Below are positions 2,320-26,236 of a stretch of DNA of 64,000 nucleotides, piece by piece. Made by a program: the position numbers and the translations under genes. Within the stretch, counting starts at the first letter, position 1. Each line of letters begins with the position of its first letter. The notes beneath the pieces are model-generated. The model saw nothing but the letters and a program-made list of their open reading frames with translations. It made no database searches and had not been told where the DNA came from. The stretch comes from an uncultured Candidatus Saccharibacteria bacterium (GTDB lineage: Bacteria > Patescibacteriota > Minisyncoccia > Phycocordibacterales > UBA9973), in NCBI GenBank assembly GCA_964527185.1, contig CAZGOI010000001.1, forward strand, positions 234,410 to 298,409. Reading direction: 5' to 3'.

Positions 2320-3378
2320 ATGGTTCATCAAAAATTTTTAGAAGAATTATTAACAAGTTTGATACACGAAGATGGTTCCGATCTGCACCTCGGCGCTGGT
2401 CGCAAGCCGGCCATGCGTGTCAACGGCCAACTTCTTTTTATGGTTAACCAAGAAGCAAATACCAAAGAAGACATGGTTGGTATTTTGGGAGTACTGATCG
2501 GCCAGAAGAGAACAGATAAATTTTTAGAAGACAGAGAAGTAGATTTTTCTTATTCATTCAAAGGCGATACGCATCTGCGAGGTAATGCTTTCTTCCAACG
2601 TGGCTCTATTTGCATTGCTCTGCGTCTAATTCCAAAAGCAAAAACTCTAGCAGAATTAAATCTGCCACAAATACTTTCAAGTTTCACTTCAAAAAATCAA
2701 GGATTCTTCCTAGTCGTTGGCCCGGTAGGTCAAGGCAAGTCGACAACCCTCTCGACTATGATAAATATGATAAACAAAGATCGAGCCTGTCATATCGTGA
2801 CCATCGAAGATCCGATCGAGTTTGTCTATGAAGCAGACAAATCTATTATCGACCAACGTGAAGTTGGTGACGATACGCTAGATTTTGCTACTGCTCTCAA
2901 ATCCGTCTTTCGCGAAGATGTCAACGTCATATTTATCGGCGAAATGCGCAGCCCCGAGACGATTGCCGCCGCTGTTACAGCTGCTGAGACTGGCCACTTG
3001 GTCTTCTCGACGCTCCATACAAATAACGCCGCCCAGACTATCGATCGCATCATCGATTCGTTCCCTTCGGCCCAACAGGATCAGATAAGACTCCAGCTAT
3101 CTTCGAGTTTGCTCGGGGTTTTCTCGCAGCGTCTCATCCCACGTATTTCTGGTGGTCGTATACCAGCCTATGAACTCCTCATCAACAACAACGCTGTCGC
3201 CAACCTAATTCGAGAGAAACGCACTCACGAGATCAGTAACGTCGTAGAAACATCTTCAGACCAAGGTATGGTCGACATGAATCGATCGCTCGTTGAATTG
3301 GTTCAAAAAGGAGAGATCACCATGGAATCAGCCTACCAATACTCGGTCAACCCAAAGGCTCTCGAGCGTATGCTCTAA
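2320..3378 (+). CDS. pilT: Type IV pilus retraction ATPase, PilT family
   Basis: 352 aa. Walker A GPVGQGKST, PilT-type core (EDPIEF, His box TLHTN). Lacks the PilB N-domain. Confidence 0.85.
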   Translation: MVHQKFLEELLTSLIHEDGSDLHLGAGRKPAMRVNGQLLFMVNQEANTKEDMVGILGVLIGQKRTDKFLEDREVDFSYSFKGDTHLRGNAFFQRGSICIALRLIPKAKTLAELNLPQILSSFTSKNQGFFLVVGPVGQGKSTTLSTMINMINKDRACHIVTIEDPIEFVYEADKSIIDQREVGDDTLDFATALKSVFREDVNVIFIGEMRSPETIAAAVTAAETGHLVFSTLHTNNAAQTIDRIIDSFPSAQQDQIRLQLSSSLLGVFSQRLIPRISGGRIPAYELLINNNAVANLIREKRTHEISNVVETSSDQGMVDMNRSLVELVQKGEITMESAYQYSVNPKALERML

Positions 3379-3386
3379 TCTAGTCT

Positions 3387-4595
3387 ATGTTATTTACCTA
3401 TGAAGCAATCACAAACGCGGGTGAAAAAAAGAAAGGCACTGTAGATGCTAGCTCTCGCGATATGGCTATCTCGGCAATTCAACGTCGAGGTTTTATCGTA
3501 GTTTCTATCAACGAAGGCGAAGCCAAGAAAAGTATCATGCAGATGACGTTTTTTGAAAAAGGAATCGCCATGAAAGACATAGTCATAATGTCTCGCCAGA
3601 TTTCAACACTTTTCGAAGCCCAAGTTTCAGCGCTCAAGGCTTTCAATCTTCTTGCCACCAATACCGAGAACAAAGCTCTAGTAAAAATTCTAACCAACGT
3701 TTCAGATGACATATCTTCCGGCCTTTCTATTTCGCAATCTCTAGCAAAACACCCCGAAGCTTTTTCAAATTTTTATGTAAACATGGTCAAAGCTGGTGAA
3801 GAATCTGGCAAACTGACGCAGACTTTTGCCTACTTGGCCGAATACCTTGATCGGCAATATCAATTAACTGCCAAAACAAAAAATGCCCTGATCTACCCAG
3901 GTTTTGTTATTAGTGTTTTCATCCTAGTTATGATTTTGATGTTCGTCTTTATTGTTCCGAGGCTGGCCGTCATCATCGAAGAGTCAGGTCAAGACATACC
4001 TTTTGCTACAAAAGTTGTCATGGGTATCAGCGACCTCTTGATCCACTATGGTTTGATCTTACTTGTCATACTAGCATTTGGAATATTTTATCTATTTAGA
4101 TTCAGCCGCTCAAAGTCTGGTCGCGAATACCTAGACAGGCTCAAGATTTCCTTGCCAGTTTTCAAAAATATTTATACCAAACTCTACCTCTCGCGCATTT
4201 CAGATAATATGGACACCATGCTTTCATCTGGCATCCCTATCATTCGTGCTATCGAGCTGACCGGTGATGTCGTCGGCAACAAAGTTTATGAAAATATTTT
4301 AAAGGATGTAACCGACCATGTTAAGGGTGGAGGTTCTTTCTCTGATGCATTGTCTCGCCACTCCGAGATTCCTTCTATCATGTCTGGAATGGTTCGCGTC
4401 GGCGAGGAAACCGGTTCGATCGGAAATATTTTGCGCACGCTTGGCAGATTCTACGCCAGAGAAGTCAATGACGCTGTCGATACGCTCGTCAGCCTGATCG
4501 AACCTCTCATGATCGTGGCGCTCGGTCTTGGCGTCGGCTTACTTCTTGCTTCAGTTCTCATGCCTATCTACAATGTAGCCTCGGGGATTCGCTAA
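3387..4595 (+). CDS. pilC: Type IV pilus platform protein, PilC/GspF family
   Basis: 402 aa. Two GspF-like repeats with 3-4 TM segments. Position follows the ATPases. Confidence 0.85.
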   Translation: MLFTYEAITNAGEKKKGTVDASSRDMAISAIQRRGFIVVSINEGEAKKSIMQMTFFEKGIAMKDIVIMSRQISTLFEAQVSALKAFNLLATNTENKALVKILTNVSDDISSGLSISQSLAKHPEAFSNFYVNMVKAGEESGKLTQTFAYLAEYLDRQYQLTAKTKNALIYPGFVISVFILVMILMFVFIVPRLAVIIEESGQDIPFATKVVMGISDLLIHYGLILLVILAFGIFYLFRFSRSKSGREYLDRLKISLPVFKNIYTKLYLSRISDNMDTMLSSGIPIIRAIELTGDVVGNKVYENILKDVTDHVKGGGSFSDALSRHSEIPSIMSGMVRVGEETGSIGNILRTLGRFYAREVNDAVDTLVSLIEPLMIVALGLGVGLLLASVLMPIYNVASGIR

Positions 4596-16542: not shown

Positions 16543-16549
16543 CAAACAG

Positions 16550-16623
16550 CGCGACCGAGCGGACTTGAACCGCCAACCTCTCGCGTGACAGGCGAGTGCT
16601 CTAACCAGTTGAGCTACGATCGC
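16550..16623 (-). tRNA. tRNA-Asp (GTC)
   Basis: Cloverleaf folds by hand: acceptor GCGATCG/CGGTCGC, anticodon loop CTGTCAC, T-loop TTCAAGT. No encoded CCA. Confidence 0.85.
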
Positions 16624-16670
16624 AAAACTATTTAAATCATAACTTCTCAATTTGCCACTATTCTCGCCTA

Positions 16671-16713
16671 GGCGAGTGCTCGCTATATTCCAATTGAGTT
16701 GAGCTACGATCGC
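16671..16713 (-). pseudogene. Degenerate partial copy of the tRNA-Asp 5' half (acceptor 5' strand + D-arm + leader)
   Basis: ggcgagtgctc...agttgagctacgatcgcaaaac matches the 5' half of tRNA-Asp 45 bp upstream, with a scrambled D-loop. Confidence 0.6.
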
Positions 16714-16736
16714 AAAACCTCAAAAAATTGAGGGTG

Positions 16737-16808
16737 TCGGCGGGAAGAATCGAACTTCCGACCTTGGGCTTATGAGTCCCACGCTCTAACCGACTGAGCT
16801 ACGCCGAC
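16737..16808 (-). tRNA. tRNA-Met/Ile2 (CAT), elongator-type
   Basis: Acceptor GTCGGCG/CGCCGAC paired at 1:72. Y11:R24. Anticodon loop CTCATAA. T-loop TTCGATT. Confidence 0.8.
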
Positions 16809-16859
16809 ATGTTCGGCTTTGGGGACATGAGATAAATTGGCATGTCACTTGCCGACTTG

Positions 16860-16930
16860 TTGCGGGGGTTTGAATCGAACAAACATCTTAAGGTTATGAG
16901 CCTTACGAGATACCATTTCTCTACCCCGCT
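16860..16930 (-). tRNA. tRNA-Met (CAT), initiator-like
   Basis: Anticodon loop CTCATAA. 1:72 unpaired (A/A). A11:U24 in the D-stem as in initiators. T-loop TTCGATT. Confidence 0.7.
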
Positions 16931-17059
16931 ATATTCTATTATATAAAAAAGGGCAAATAAGCCCAACCCCCATATTCTACCTAAAATCAGGAATTTTGCA
17001 ATCATTGTTTACAAAATAGGGGAATAATGGTAATTTAGTAAATAATTAAAACAACCTAA

Positions 17060-17326
17060 ATGCAGCTCTCAATAGACAAGGTATCATTCGCGAACGCCAA
17101 AATACGAAGCAGATCAGATCCTGTAAAGATGAAAGTTGTGGTGCGTAAAGAAATAAATGGTGTAATTTACTCCCAATTAGAAGAAGTAGAATTTACCCCC
17201 GAAAATTACTGCACCATAGGTAACATAGATTATTTGTTAGTCGAAGACGAAAATGAAAGCCAAGGCTACATGCACAATTTTTCTTTGGTTAAATCCTCTT
17301 GTGGCTATCGCGAAAAAAATTTCTAA
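17060..17326 (+). CDS. Hypothetical small protein between tRNA clusters
   Basis: 88-aa ORF with no recognisable motifs. Confidence 0.3.
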   Translation: MQLSIDKVSFANAKIRSRSDPVKMKVVVRKEINGVIYSQLEEVEFTPENYCTIGNIDYLLVEDENESQGYMHNFSLVKSSCGYREKNF

Positions 17327-17395
17327 GACTGCTAAGTTTGCCGGCAGTCTTTTTCGTTTGAAAACGAGATTAAATTATAGTAACATCATCCTATT

Positions 17396-17468
17396 GCCGT
17401 TATAGCTCAGGTAGTAGAGCATTTCCATGGTAAGGAAAAGGTCGACAGTGCAAGTCTGTCTAACGGCT
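17396..17468 (+). tRNA. tRNA-Thr (GGT)
   Basis: Acceptor GCCGTTA/TAACGGC. Anticodon stem TTTCC/GGAAA with loop ATGGTAA. Confidence 0.85.
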
Positions 17469-17476
17469 CACTTCCC

Positions 17477-17549
17477 GCCACCCTAGCTCAGTTGGTAGAG
17501 CACGGCTTTCGTAAAGCCGGGGTCCCGAGTTCGATCCTCGGGGGTGGCT
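17477..17549 (+). tRNA. tRNA-Thr (CGT)
   Basis: Acceptor GCCACCC/GGGTGGC. Anticodon stem CGGCT/AGCCG with loop TTCGTAA. T-loop TTCGATC. Confidence 0.85.
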
Positions 17550-17589
17550 CAAGTGTTGATTTTTATTGCCAAAGTGATACCATGAAATC

Positions 17590-24618: not shown

Positions 24619-24641
24619 AACCCCCTAGGTTTAGGGGTTTT
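24617..24641. terminator. Bidirectional hairpin terminator between pyrG and LOG
   Basis: aaaaccccctaggtttaggggtttt. Confidence 0.65.
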
Positions 24642-25374
24642 ATTTTAAGGCATCGCGACCGTCGCGCAGGCGACTCTCTGATATGATTCGCAAGATTTCA
24701 TCTTGGTCGTCGGTGATAGTGTAAATATTTGTATCTTCTTCGTTGATCGTTCCGTATTTTTCTGCCAAAACTTCTTTGATCAAACTCTGTAGCGGGTTCC
24801 AAAATTCAGAACCGTATAGGATGATTGGAATTTTCCCAATTTTGCCGGTCTGCTCGAGTGTCAATATTTCAAAAAGTTCATTGAATGTTCCAAACCCGCC
24901 GGCGCAAAATATGCAAACCTCGGTCGTGTATGACAGAATTACTTGTCGGGCAAAGAAAAAATAAAATGGAATCTCATCTGTCACATACGGGTTCGTTTTC
25001 TGCTCGTGCGGTAGCCTGATGGTCAGCCCGACGGCCCGCCCGCCGGCATCGTGCGCGCCGCGGCTGGCCGCCTCCATTATTCCACCGCCACCACCCGAGA
25101 TGACAATATAGCCCAGCTCTTTAGAAATTCGATAGGCCAAGTCTCGAGCTTTTTGGTACACTGGATTTGTCTCTTCAATTCTTGCCGAACCGTAAAATGT
25201 GACTGAGGGAGTGAACTCGCTGATCATATCTATACCATTGCGAAACTCTTCTTGGATCATGCAGAGCTTTGTCTCTTCATTGTTGTCGCCGTAGAGGGTG
25301 ACACAGCCGGTCTTGATATCGTCTAACGATAATTTTTTAGGTCGATAGACGACTTTCTTTTCTTCTTTATCCAT
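24640..25374 (-). CDS. LOG family (TIGR00730) nucleotide phosphoribohydrolase-like protein
   Basis: 244 aa. GGGGGIMEAASRGA and PGGFGTFNELFE motifs. Confidence 0.7.
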   Translation of the reverse strand: MDKEEKKVVYRPKKLSLDDIKTGCVTLYGDNNEETKLCMIQEEFRNGIDMISEFTPSVTFYGSARIEETNPVYQKARDLAYRISKELGYIVISGGGGGIMEAASRGAHDAGGRAVGLTIRLPHEQKTNPYVTDEIPFYFFFARQVILSYTTEVCIFCAGGFGTFNELFEILTLEQTGKIGKIPIILYGSEFWNPLQSLIKEVLAEKYGTINEEDTNIYTITDDQDEILRIISESRLRDGRDALK

Positions 25375-25454
25375 CTAGTGATTTTACTCTAATTAGTACG
25401 TCATTTCAATTGTTTTTCTTGAAATTCGTGGTAATATATCGAGGTCAAAAACAT

Positions 25455-25525
25455 TGCCGACTCGTCTAATGGTAGGACACATCCCTCTGGAGGATGGTAT
25501 TGGGGTTCGAATCCCTGGTCGGCAG
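25455..25525 (+). tRNA. tRNA-Gln (CTG)
   Basis: Acceptor TGCCGAC/GTCGGCA. Anticodon stem CATCC/GGATG with loop CTCTGGA. T-loop TTCGAAT. Confidence 0.8.
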
Positions 25526-25529
25526 CTCT
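25508..25529 (+). repeat. Direct repeat copy 1 (tRNA-Gln T-arm/3' acceptor, cgaatccctggtcggcagctct)
   Basis: 21/22 identical to 25884-25905. Confidence 0.8.
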
Positions 25530-25633
25530 TCGTCGCTCTGCTCCTCAGAGCCTTCGGCCCATATTGTTTTTATTTGCGACGAAGATACCAAGCGAGTCCT
25601 GACAAAGTAAGGACGACGAGGTAGAATTAATTT

Positions 25634-25882
25634 ATGCATTTTGTTTATATCCTCGAATGCGCCGATAAATCTTTTTATGTGGGTTGTACAAATGATCTAG
25701 AACGTAGATTAAAACAACACAATAATTCAAAATGGGGAGCCCACTATACTAAAACTCGTAGACCTGTAATTTTAAAATATTCCGAGAGTTTTTCGACATT
25801 AAAAGAAGCTAGACATCGAGAAAGCGAGATCAAGGGATGGAGAAGAGAAAAGAAGTTAGGATTGATTGAAAAATACTTGTGA
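25634..25882 (+). CDS. GIY-YIG nuclease family protein (YhbQ/Slx1-like)
   Basis: 82 aa. FVYILECADKSFYVGCTNDLERRLKQHN (GIY...YxG, R, E). Confidence 0.75.
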   Translation: MHFVYILECADKSFYVGCTNDLERRLKQHNNSKWGAHYTKTRRPVILKYSESFSTLKEARHRESEIKGWRREKKLGLIEKYL

Positions 25883-25883
25883 C

Positions 25884-25905
25884 CGAATCCCTGGTCGGTA
25901 GCTCT
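25884..25905 (+). repeat. Direct repeat copy 2 of tRNA-Gln 3' end (cgaatccctggtcggtagctct)
   Basis: Begins 1 nt after the GIY-YIG TGA stop and brackets a 375-bp cassette. Confidence 0.8.
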
Positions 25906-25922
25906 CTCATGATAAATTATCC

Positions 25923-25941
25923 CGCCCGAGACGCGTCGTTT
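25923..25941 (+). repeat. Repeat R copy 1 (cgcccgagacgcgtcgttt)
   Basis: 17/19 identical to 26450-26468. Contains the palindrome GACGCGTC. Confidence 0.6.
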
Positions 25942-25972
25942 ACAGGGTGGGTGGAGGTGATACAATGAGAAT

Positions 25973-26236
25973 ATGACCGATCTAGATACCCGACACATGA
26001 CACTCGATCAACTCGTCGAATTGGCGGGCGAGACTGTCATCGGAACGCCAAGCGGTCTGAGATCCCAGAAAGCGCAAGCAGAAATCAATCGTCAGCTCAT
26101 TGAAGCCCTGAATGCGTCAAAAGACTCGACTGAAAGATACAGCAAGAAACTTGAATGTCTAACCTGGGTATTGGTCGGGCTTACAGTAATACTTATTGTC
26201 ATTGGAGTATTGCCTTTCATTATTAAGGGCGTATAA
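25973..26236 (+). CDS. Small tail-anchored membrane protein
   Basis: 87 aa. Soluble N-terminal part and a single C-terminal TM. Confidence 0.35.

Follow-up and report, generated by a model that had tools for sequence, protein, structure and literature searches.

The window analysed here is a stretch of 64,000 nt (64 kb) of contig CAZGOI010000001.1, from an uncultured Candidatus Saccharibacteria bacterium, with a G+C content of 40.7%. Within it a tRNA-Gln gene is followed on the same strand by a cassette of about 350 bases (0.35 kb), the sole intact gene of which is an open reading frame (ORF) for a GIY-YIG nuclease of 82 amino acids (aa); the neighbouring genes have their best matches in Patescibacteria. 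We refer to the cassette copy of this window as W, and L-numbers denote the loci with which it was compared. The features of the locus are as follows.

25455-25526, plus strand: tRNA-Gln gene (anticodon CTG), called by ARAGORN and Rfam
25508-25529, plus strand: left copy of a 22-nt direct repeat, within the functional tRNA, from repeat search and shuffles
25523-25553, minus strand: module B', an inverted tandem-G.A hairpin, from covariance model R1 (31.4 bits, E=4.6e-6)
25527-25585, plus strand: hairpin A, the inverted repeat reported earlier, with arms TCTTCGTCGC (25527-25536) and GCGACGAAGA (25576-25585), 10/10 complementary
25586-25623, plus strand: predicted module B in the nested form TACC-AAGCGAG-[TCCTGACAAAGTAAGGA]-CGACGAG-GTA, from the minimum-free-energy fold and the layout of L004, L020 and L029
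25599-25627, plus strand: promoter-like site CTGACA-17-TAGAAT, with 10/12 consensus matches
25634-25882 (stop included), plus strand: GIY-YIG nuclease gene, 82 aa, of UPF0213 / COG2827 type by Pfam and PDB similarity
25884-25905, plus strand: right copy of the 22-nt repeat, a displaced tRNA 3' fragment with C71>T and nothing 5' of C56, from repeat search (p=0.003)
25911-25950, plus strand: flank motif GATAAATTATCCCGCCCGAGACGCGTCGTTTACAG, with similar strings 3' of the cassette in L009, L004 and L015 and 5' of homologues of an 87-aa gene in L090 and L093

The tRNA-Gln scored 52 bits with the Rfam tRNA model (E=3.5e-10); by our reading of its sequence it has a U1-A72 pair and a discriminator G73 at 25525, and CCA is not encoded. 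The direct repeat, CGAATCCCTGGTCGG[C/T]AGCTCT, with the left copy CGAATCCCTGGTCGGCAGCTCT, runs from C56 of the T-loop through the 3' strand of the acceptor stem and the discriminator G73 to 4 nt of trailer, and the two copies differ by a single C>T transition at tRNA position 71. Allowing up to three mismatches, just these two sites were found in the 64 kb, and none in 100 dinucleotide-preserving shuffles; the p-value of the right copy was obtained against 300 control windows. The right copy begins 1 nt past the stop codon of the ORF. A sequence-only reading of this DNA had already described the repeat with its one transition, and the second copy 1 nt behind the stop of the 82-aa gene, and we reproduce both the positions and the change. 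It had further held that the interval contains the gene and one inverted repeat only. The gene and the inverted repeat, two arms of 10 nt with 100% complementarity and a spacing of 39 nt, are indeed there, but the two hairpin modules B' and B are present as well. The right copy was also considered as part of a longer tRNA pseudogene, which was rejected: the similarity 5' of C56 (AGGATTGATTG) falls within the conserved KKLGLI codons and is most readily put down to chance. As the sequence 5' of C56 is conserved C-terminal coding sequence of the ORF, the right copy is not an independent tRNA pseudogene.

The encoded protein matches Pfam PF01541 over residues 1-74 (68.7 bits against a cut-off of 22.6, E=5.4e-19) and the solved UPF0213 proteins 1zg2_A (BH0048; E=4.4e-14, query residues 2-78) and 1ywl_A (EF2693; E=1.4e-13), and these similarities place it in the GIY-YIG superfamily and in UPF0213 / COG2827. 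It consists of a single domain, with no second domain detected by Pfam. The residues Y5, Y15, G17, R25, H29 and E62 are each kept in at least 90% of 77 aligned homologues (three more were left out solely because the ORF extension overran their stop), and by analogy these would be the catalytic residues. Its homologues number more than 2,300. Those ranking highest, 80-88% identical to the W protein and spread over many Patescibacteria lineages, are labelled Kaiserbacteria, Giovannonibacteria, Jorgensenbacteria and Paceibacterota, and the ORF also occurs in loci labelled Roizmanbacteria, Curtissbacteria and Saccharibacteria. It is intact in 80 of 81 loci, with an internal stop only in L069. The homologues generally diverge directly after KKLxLI, as would be expected if the conserved unit stops there and each insertion makes its own tail; the conserved part of the nuclease gene may well reach the right edge of the cassette.

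No integrase or recombinase was found in the element or within about 8 kb of it, where the neighbours are CTP synthase, LOG (a lysine-decarboxylase-like protein, gene at 24640-25374 on the minus strand), NUDIX, cyclase, MFS, HlyD, MarR and DAO genes, and Pfam detected no known transposase domain in the element. This bears out the earlier description of a small element with a GIY-YIG ORF and no integrase. Being without an integrase the element is not an integrase island, a candidate that was rejected with no recombinase and no third repeat copy in the window, and neither does it belong to a known insertion-sequence class. A defence system was rejected as PADLOC gave no match, and a phage as vector was rejected as viral contigs hold just 11 weak relatives, the best of them 56% identical.

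With moderate confidence we read W as one copy of a widespread family of selfish cassettes of about 0.35 kb at the 3' ends of tRNA genes, driven by the nuclease and carrying a replacement tRNA tail. The observed anatomy of such a cassette comprises a stand-alone GIY-YIG gene of UPF0213 type with 80-90 aa, B' and B as an inverted pair, and the tRNA stretch from C56 to the discriminator, which would act as the replacement 3' segment. The recurrence behind several tRNAs in many bacteria, described below, suggests that very small selfish elements directed at tRNAs form a family not described so far.

Displaced tRNA ends across loci

For comparison, 80 loci from species-representative, metagenome-assembled genomes were scanned for tRNAs. 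At least 450 nt of upstream sequence was available at 72 loci (W included), and 40 of these 72 have the 3' end of a same-strand tRNA in the 400 nt that precede the ORF; on a rough estimate (some 45 tRNA genes per megabase) about 1% would do so by chance. The tRNAs at the 40 loci are 33 Gln (with CTG and TTG anticodons), 2 Met, 2 Ala, 2 Ser and 1 Leu, the more distant relatives being found at tRNA-Met (L044, L068), tRNA-Ala (L052, L063), tRNA-Leu (L054) and tRNA-Ser (L059, L076).

To search for displaced fragments the last 32 nt of the tRNA and 6 nt of its trailer were locally aligned with 165 nt around the ORF stop, with 300 control windows per locus. The 3' part of the locus's own tRNA was found displaced within 120 nt past the stop (p<=0.01) in 13 of 36 testable loci, and two further displaced fragments, in L033 and L041, were found by eye. 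In W, L054 (Leu), L059 (Ser) and L076 (Ser), with four tRNAs of three amino-acid types, the first nucleotide of the fragment is C56 itself (CGAATCC or CGATCC), and in most other positive loci the start lies within about 3 nt of it; the starts cluster at the 55/56 boundary of the T-loop. The fragments end 0-4 nt past the tRNA end. Their distance from the stop is 1-46 nt, and in L074 the ORF runs into the fragment. The duplication is about 20-23 nt long in W, L076, L068, L041 and L019, and the right junctions (marked by a slash) read GCGA/CGA(A)TCC or GCGACG/T(T)CGATTCC in W, L019, L076, L059, L006 and L041. Unrelated genomes show the layout of tRNA, cassette and displaced 3' fragment at tRNAs of five kinds (Gln, Met, Leu and two Ser), which strengthens the earlier suggestion of an insertion signature at a tRNA 3' end. 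As the same T-loop boundary repeats at different tRNAs, this recurrence is neither chance nor a single ancient accident.

Some loci are more complex. The displaced fragment of L006 is followed by the start of the B' of another subfamily, extra tRNA-Gln fragments lie between the tRNA and B' in L021, L024 and L037, and in L054 the fragment and an identical B are duplicated around the ORF, with an assembly gap of 100 N exactly at the repeat. The last of these, a Planctomycetales locus (2761-3441), reads tRNA-Leu, 100-N gap, B, GIY-YIG gene, tRNA-Leu 3' fragment, identical second B and tRNA-Val. The 11 nt before its fragment (CTCGGGGTAAA) are the reverse complement of the start of B, and the fragment thus lies in a potential hairpin loop. 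In our window a group of five tRNA genes (Asp, Met, Met, Thr, Thr; 16549-17550) has no GIY-YIG gene or B module nearby, therefore tRNA genes of this genome do not carry the cassette as a rule.

The position behind a tRNA could also be that of a remnant of a larger integrase island or prophage at tRNA-Gln, in which a deletion internal to attL and attR left a cargo gene and two att cores. Synteny breaks at the tRNA-Gln and the genes beyond it vary, and other DNA lies between the tRNA and tRNA fragments in L021, L012 and L013, as such a remnant would have it. We consider it highly improbable nevertheless, as the same deletion outcome, a fragment 1-46 nt past the same ORF, would be needed many times and at different tRNAs; moreover the 64 kb hold no third repeat copy and no integrase, and the hairpin modules are specific to this gene.

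Hairpin modules and expression signals

Just 5' of nearly every ORF lies module B, with the consensus RCCC-UGAG-(short stem-loop)-CGAA-GGGY. Its structure was taken from an alignment of 41 modules (A1) and consists of a closing stem of 3-4 bp, a U-A or C-G pair, tandem sheared G.A pairs and a G-C pair. In this alignment 89% of the cells are paired against 75% in shuffles, and 46 double-sided changes were counted against 17.5 in shuffles, none of 500 shuffles being as high; when the 3' partners were slid by 1-3 columns only 33-47% remained paired. The inner loop is very often GC-GNA-GC (GCGAAGC, GCGTAGC), a classic and very stable DNA mini-hairpin, and these GNA triloops suggest that B folds as single-stranded DNA. 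B is also found at ORFs in Lentisphaeria, Ignavibacteria, Acidobacteria, Bacteroidota and Alphaproteobacteria.

The covariance model R1, which was built solely from plus-strand B modules of other loci and gives rough E-values, detects inverted copies (B') on the minus strand outside its seed, at about 30 loci, where they overlap the last 3-4 nt of the tRNA; the top match of the whole search is the B' of L022. In W the closing stem of B', GCTC/GAGC, is made of the discriminator G73 and the next 3 nt, and the G.A pairs are on the minus strand. Read on the top strand, B' is [A72]-G73-C-N-C-TTCG...CTCA-G-N'-G-C, and its closing stem takes in the discriminator and the three places that an encoded CCA would fill. 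The third stem pair N:N' covaries (T-A, C-G, A-T), and the closing stem varies with the tRNA end, being CCA/TGG in the tRNA-Ala cassettes and ACTC/GAGT in the tRNA-Met cassette L044. Two other cassettes at tRNA-Met with discriminator A (L068, L075) retain GTGC, and the resulting A.C mismatch in the B' stem is as expected for a Gln-type cassette moved to tRNA-Met.

The B module of W is the minimum-free-energy fold and has the same layout as in the three loci listed with it above; R1 gives no match to it at E<=1, and we assign it by predicted fold and by analogy. Hairpin A has its 5' arm inside B', and its 3' arm repeats the 3' half-site of B on its own. It is the dominant predicted RNA fold in W, and most related leaders have an equivalent hairpin. 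The modules are specific to this GIY-YIG gene: R1 found no further B module in the window beyond the cassette, neither B nor B' occurs at unoccupied tRNA-Gln loci, and the modules accompany the viral relatives L102 and L104.

A known RNA family for the leader was rejected with no match in Rfam 15, which gave tRNA matches only, at E<=10 in 25300-26100 and at E<=1 in 11 related loci. The words CUGAnGAG...CGAA prompted us to consider a hammerhead ribozyme, which was rejected as the flanks pair together and do not form stems I/III, a cleavage-site triplet is lacking and Rfam gave no match. Dispersal of the hairpins in the manner of repetitive extragenic palindromic (REP) sequences was rejected as well, there being no other module in the 64 kb.

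The G.A pairs are possible on the top strand only for B and on the bottom strand only for B', therefore a single strand of RNA cannot carry both motifs, and this opposition hints at a role at the DNA level. It should be noted that an alternative top-strand RNA fold pairs the B' region with B (CTTCGTCGC/GCGACGAAG and CTCCTCAG/CTGAGGAG are complementary) and is chosen by RNAfold in several loci.

Cassettes of the Gln type have the order tRNA-B'-B-ORF-fragment and those of the Ser type the order tRNA-B-ORF-B'-fragment, B' adjoining the tRNA segment in both; B' and B flank the ORF in L059, L076, L055, L070 and L079. Several B'(-)/B(+) pairs were seen in L078 (5227-5750) and L077 (2770-3554), which are labelled Pelagibius sp. 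and Kordiimonadaceae and were taken as Alphaproteobacteria. A second GIY-YIG copy in L078 is flanked on both sides by B'-B pairs, with no tRNA nearby; it is possibly a pseudogene, because no ORF of at least 70 aa is listed there. The B'/B hairpin pair may be a repeat unit in other phyla.

The promoter-like site of W overlaps B. With 6 nt between its -10 hexamer and the ATG, the transcript may lack a leader. Of 71 related loci, 32 have a -10-like TANNNT 3-11 nt 5' of the ATG, where the background is 13.6%. Other subfamilies have a Shine-Dalgarno-like GAAGGA instead, placed 4-12 nt 5' of the ATG within the 3' arm of B.

The adjacency of B' and the tRNA segment bears on a further explanation, that of a Campbell-type mini-integrative circle with an attP-like tRNA 3' segment (flanked by ...GCGA and B'), brought in by a recombinase in trans or by host homologous recombination, with the GIY-YIG protein as cargo or recombination helper. 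A repeat from the T-loop to the 3' end is the exact trace of the T-loop-class tyrosine integrases, an example being Ms6 with its attB in the T-loop of tRNA-Ala (PMC1762012). The identity runs 3-4 nt beyond the tRNA into B', as if the segment and B' were contiguous in attP, and B' stays with the segment in both the Gln-type and the Ser-type order, which would be circular permutations of each other; the right junctions, too, are often GCGA/CGA(A)TCC. Such a circle seems rather unlikely to us, however. No integrase lies near the element in the window, and none was visible in the 3-kb flanks read at other loci, where no recombinase search was made. Further, a circle of about 376 bp leaves very little room for recombinase synapsis, RecA-type recombination would have a marginal 20-23 bp of identity to work with, and the circle gives no reason why the nuclease ORF should be intact in all but one of 81 loci.

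Occupancy, age and proposed mode of insertion

The cassette is patchily present among relatives. In L081 and L086, where LOG is 81-82% identical to that of the window, the same tRNA-Gln has no cassette, and the synteny (RF-1, FtsE, FtsX, CTP synthase, LOG) stops exactly at this tRNA. Of the empty sites that the sequence-only reading proposed to look for, an unoccupied tRNA-Gln is thus found, but the flanks are rearranged and the tRNA is inverted. Relatives without the cassette, together with a fragment that is no tRNA pseudogene in its own right, favour the insertion that this reading put forward. The inverted tRNA-Gln block, at 3325-3447 in L081, 2955-3077 in L086 and 3385-3458 in L085, corresponds to 25404-25526 of the window, and the gene order beyond it is unrelated; therefore tRNA-Gln is an inversion and rearrangement breakpoint. 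L085 carries a 79-aa GIY-YIG gene on the 5' side of its tRNA-Gln (2840-3316, minus strand), 66% identical, diverged and leaderless. It has neither hairpin modules nor a tRNA fragment and apparently forms an operon with a preceding 73-aa ORF that has an Amphi-Trp domain.

In L015, a more distant orthologous locus, the cassette is present with a partly decayed fragment, and the ORF is 80.5% identical against 61% for LOG. A second, divergent GIY-YIG gene (2577-2825, 37% identical) ends 12 nt before the cassette-bearing tRNA-Gln of L015, so that this tRNA lies between two GIY-YIG genes. The orthologous locus is likewise occupied in the L002/L003 pair. Further, the source contig appears to encode a second copy of the cassette protein: P0002, listed on a contig equal in length to that of the window's genes and so apparently from the same contig, shares its first 78 residues with the W protein and departs from it over the final four (SGLI versus EKYL).

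In the right flank lies a small membrane-protein ORF of 87 aa (25973-26236), which has no match in Pfam, PHROG or PADLOC. Relatives with 67-79% identity occur in 11 metagenome loci (L090-L100) with unrelated neighbours, two copies being on one 435-kb contig, and in some of these loci a tRNA gene (Val, Trp, Gln or Tyr) lies to one side or the other at a distance of 0.5-1.3 kb. As a guide to the orthologous empty site this flank was rejected, since the gene occurs in many unrelated contexts. The flank motif, TTATYCC.CACGAGACGCG.. in general form, stands about 60 nt 5' of the 87-aa-gene homologues and probably belongs to this gene rather than to the cassette; in the window it is followed by a promoter-like TTTACA-16-TACAAT at 25939-25966.

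Occupied orthologous loci such as L015 and the L002/L003 pair would also fit a domesticated, vertically inherited host gene whose protein might repair DNA, say, or guard the attachment site in the tRNA. The gene would be transcribed from the tRNA-Gln unit or close to it, with the hairpins as a regulatory leader and the fragments as relics of a few ancient events. The ORFs are intact and under purifying selection, and the overlap of B with the promoter-like site, or with the Shine-Dalgarno-like sequence in other subfamilies, fits autoregulation; UPF0213 proteins are moreover ordinary single-copy genes in model bacteria. We still regard domestication as improbable. It leaves independent tRNA-3' duplications at five tRNAs with the same T-loop boundary, nested fragments, at least two copies apparently in one genome with different C-terminal tails, the absence of the cassette in closer relatives, and a nuclease gene that is more conserved than its neighbour in L015.

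For a nuclease-driven selfish cassette we propose the following course of events. The nuclease would cut an unoccupied tRNA gene in or beside the conserved T-loop DNA (GGTT^CGAATCC), at or near T-loop 55/56, and the B-type hairpins may position it, as it has no DNA-binding domain of its own. The broken tRNA-side end would then invade a cassette-bearing tRNA gene and copy the segment from C56 to the 3' end, B', B and the ORF, and the new DNA would be joined, often at CGA(A) microhomology, to the other end of the recipient, which starts at C56. The cassette's own segment from C56 to the 3' end would keep the tRNA intact, and the original 3' segment of the recipient would be displaced 3' of the ORF and decay there as the right-hand repeat. 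A variable joint after codon 78 would give each copy its individual C-terminal tail. Such copying-in would lead to the constant left boundary of the fragments, the variable distance between ORF and fragment and the variable tails, an intact tRNA and the lack of an integrase. Two other routes would fit the anatomy about equally well, namely a staggered pair of nicks about 22 nt apart with fill-in, and excision with reinsertion via cuts at both ^CGAA sites.

Further, we speculate that the cassette represents a new class of minimal DNA mobile element, made of a GIY-YIG domain of 80 aa and two inverted tandem-G.A DNA hairpins that replace the DNA-binding domain. Its nuclease would act on the 5' side of CGAA, at GCGA^CGAAGG within the modules and at TT^CGAA within the T-loop palindrome, allowing cut-and-paste or copy-in, and the UPF0213 / YhbQ family would thereby gain a founding role as parasites of tRNA genes. 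This stronger proposal is possible, though we are more inclined to doubt it than to accept it.

Several points weigh against a selfish cassette driven by its nuclease. The nuclease activity, the cut site and the transfer are inferred from patterns in the sequences. Classical homing, in which a double-strand break is repaired from the filled allele, creates no target duplication, therefore an extra step has to be assumed, be it a circular intermediate, end-joining or two nicks staggered by about 22 nt. The protein itself looks little like a homing enzyme: the group I intron endonuclease model of NCBIfam (TIGR01453) matches residues 1-33 only, with 23.6 bits and below its cut-off of 56, the PHROG homing endonuclease family matches at E=4e-4 only, and in the 82 aa, of which Pfam covers 1-74, no DNA-binding domain is attached to the catalytic domain, so that the protein is not of the Seg / I-Tev type. 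Other members of UPF0213, E. coli YhbQ for instance, occur as single-copy genes and are not known to move. B' and B are both on the same (left) side of the ORF in W, unlike transposon ends, and 23 of 36 occupied loci have no detectable right-hand fragment. In L081 and L086 the tRNA-Gln is inverted together with about 50 nt of upstream flank and the flank is rearranged, hence no strictly orthologous pair of filled and empty sites is at hand. Because the orthologous L015 already carries the cassette with a decayed fragment, the insertion in this lineage is old, and the fragment looks neutral. All compared genomes belong to different species with an ORF DNA identity of at most 86%, a sample in which near-identical copies in different contexts are not observable and recent movement is not demonstrated. 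The homing-type selfish element of the sequence-only reading therefore stands as to its insertion footprint but not as to homing as the whole mechanism, given the duplication, the lack of a DNA-binding domain and the old insertion.

To our knowledge no member of the large family UPF0213 / COG2827 has an assigned function, and its solved structures are deposited only as hypothetical. If the cassette is what we propose, thousands of members in Patescibacteria and other phyla would gain a testable role. There would then be a third harmless way to occupy a tRNA gene beside integrase islands and introns, by a cassette with its own tRNA tail. The hairpin modules are supported by covariation and unannotated, and are currently missed or translated as spurious ORFs by annotation pipelines; the cassettes also mark tRNA-Gln as a rearrangement hotspot in reduced genomes.

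Comparison with known systems

GIY-YIG genes are listed among the genes exchanged by Patescibacteria (PMC12455944). Insertions in rRNA genes of the candidate phyla radiation (CPR), which match neither group I nor group II introns, contain sparse GIY-YIG ORFs that were judged to lie outside homing (PMC11270868). Compared by description, these insertions resemble our cassette in phylum and in having GIY-YIG ORFs in stable-RNA genes, but their targets are rRNA genes, and no tRNA link or hairpin modules are reported for them (PMC11270868). In the full-text literature, of which our coverage is incomplete with most subscription journals outside it, neither tRNA-linked UPF0213 cassettes nor the hairpin modules turned up.

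The solved UPF0213 / COG2827 proteins (1ZG2 BH0048, 1YWL EF2693) and E. coli YhbQ are of the same family as the W protein, with similarity over the full length (E ~1e-14) and the same single-domain size, but the solved proteins are deposited as hypothetical. We know of no link of these proteins to tRNA genes, repeats or mobility. The REP/RAYT systems (REPtrons) and IS200/IS605 likewise combine a small nuclease gene with imperfect hairpins, in which stems covary and loop motifs are fixed. The cassette enzyme, however, is a GIY-YIG protein and not an HUH Y1 transposase, and the modules are undispersed in the 64-kb window and lie on opposite strands.

Elements of T-loop-class tyrosine integrases, such as mycobacteriophage Ms6 (PMC1762012), share with the cassette a repeat from the tRNA T-loop to the tRNA end and an element that restores the tRNA. 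They differ in that the cassette has no integrase and measures 0.35 kb against 5-100 kb, and its sole gene is that of a hydrolytic nuclease, which is unable to religate.

T4 SegB is a free-standing GIY-YIG homing endonuclease in the tRNA gene cluster of T4, with a 27-bp site from GGTTCRANTCC (T-loop DNA) to the tRNA 3' end; its cut there leaves 2-nt 3' overhangs, and many tRNA genes are cleaved (PMC2330249). SegB is the nearest experimental precedent for the cassette. Both have a GIY-YIG domain in a free-standing gene at tRNA genes, the SegB site is roughly the segment duplicated in the cassettes (about 22-27 bp), and cutting at many tRNA genes fits the spread of the cassette over Gln, Met, Ala, Leu and Ser. 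SegB, however, mobilises itself by gene conversion, and neither a duplicated target nor a tail that would replace that of the tRNA is described in its case (PMC2330249). It is a phage gene, whereas the cassette is chromosomal, found in Patescibacteria and other phyla and rare in viral contigs, and no tandem-G.A hairpin modules are described for SegB. Seg-type endonucleases are also larger and have DNA-binding modules, whereas the W protein has the catalytic domain only. If our reading is right, the SegB principle, a GIY-YIG enzyme that reads tRNA T-loop DNA, would extend from one phage to cellular genomes, and the element would work like a cross of a free-standing homing endonuclease gene and a T-loop-class integrative element.

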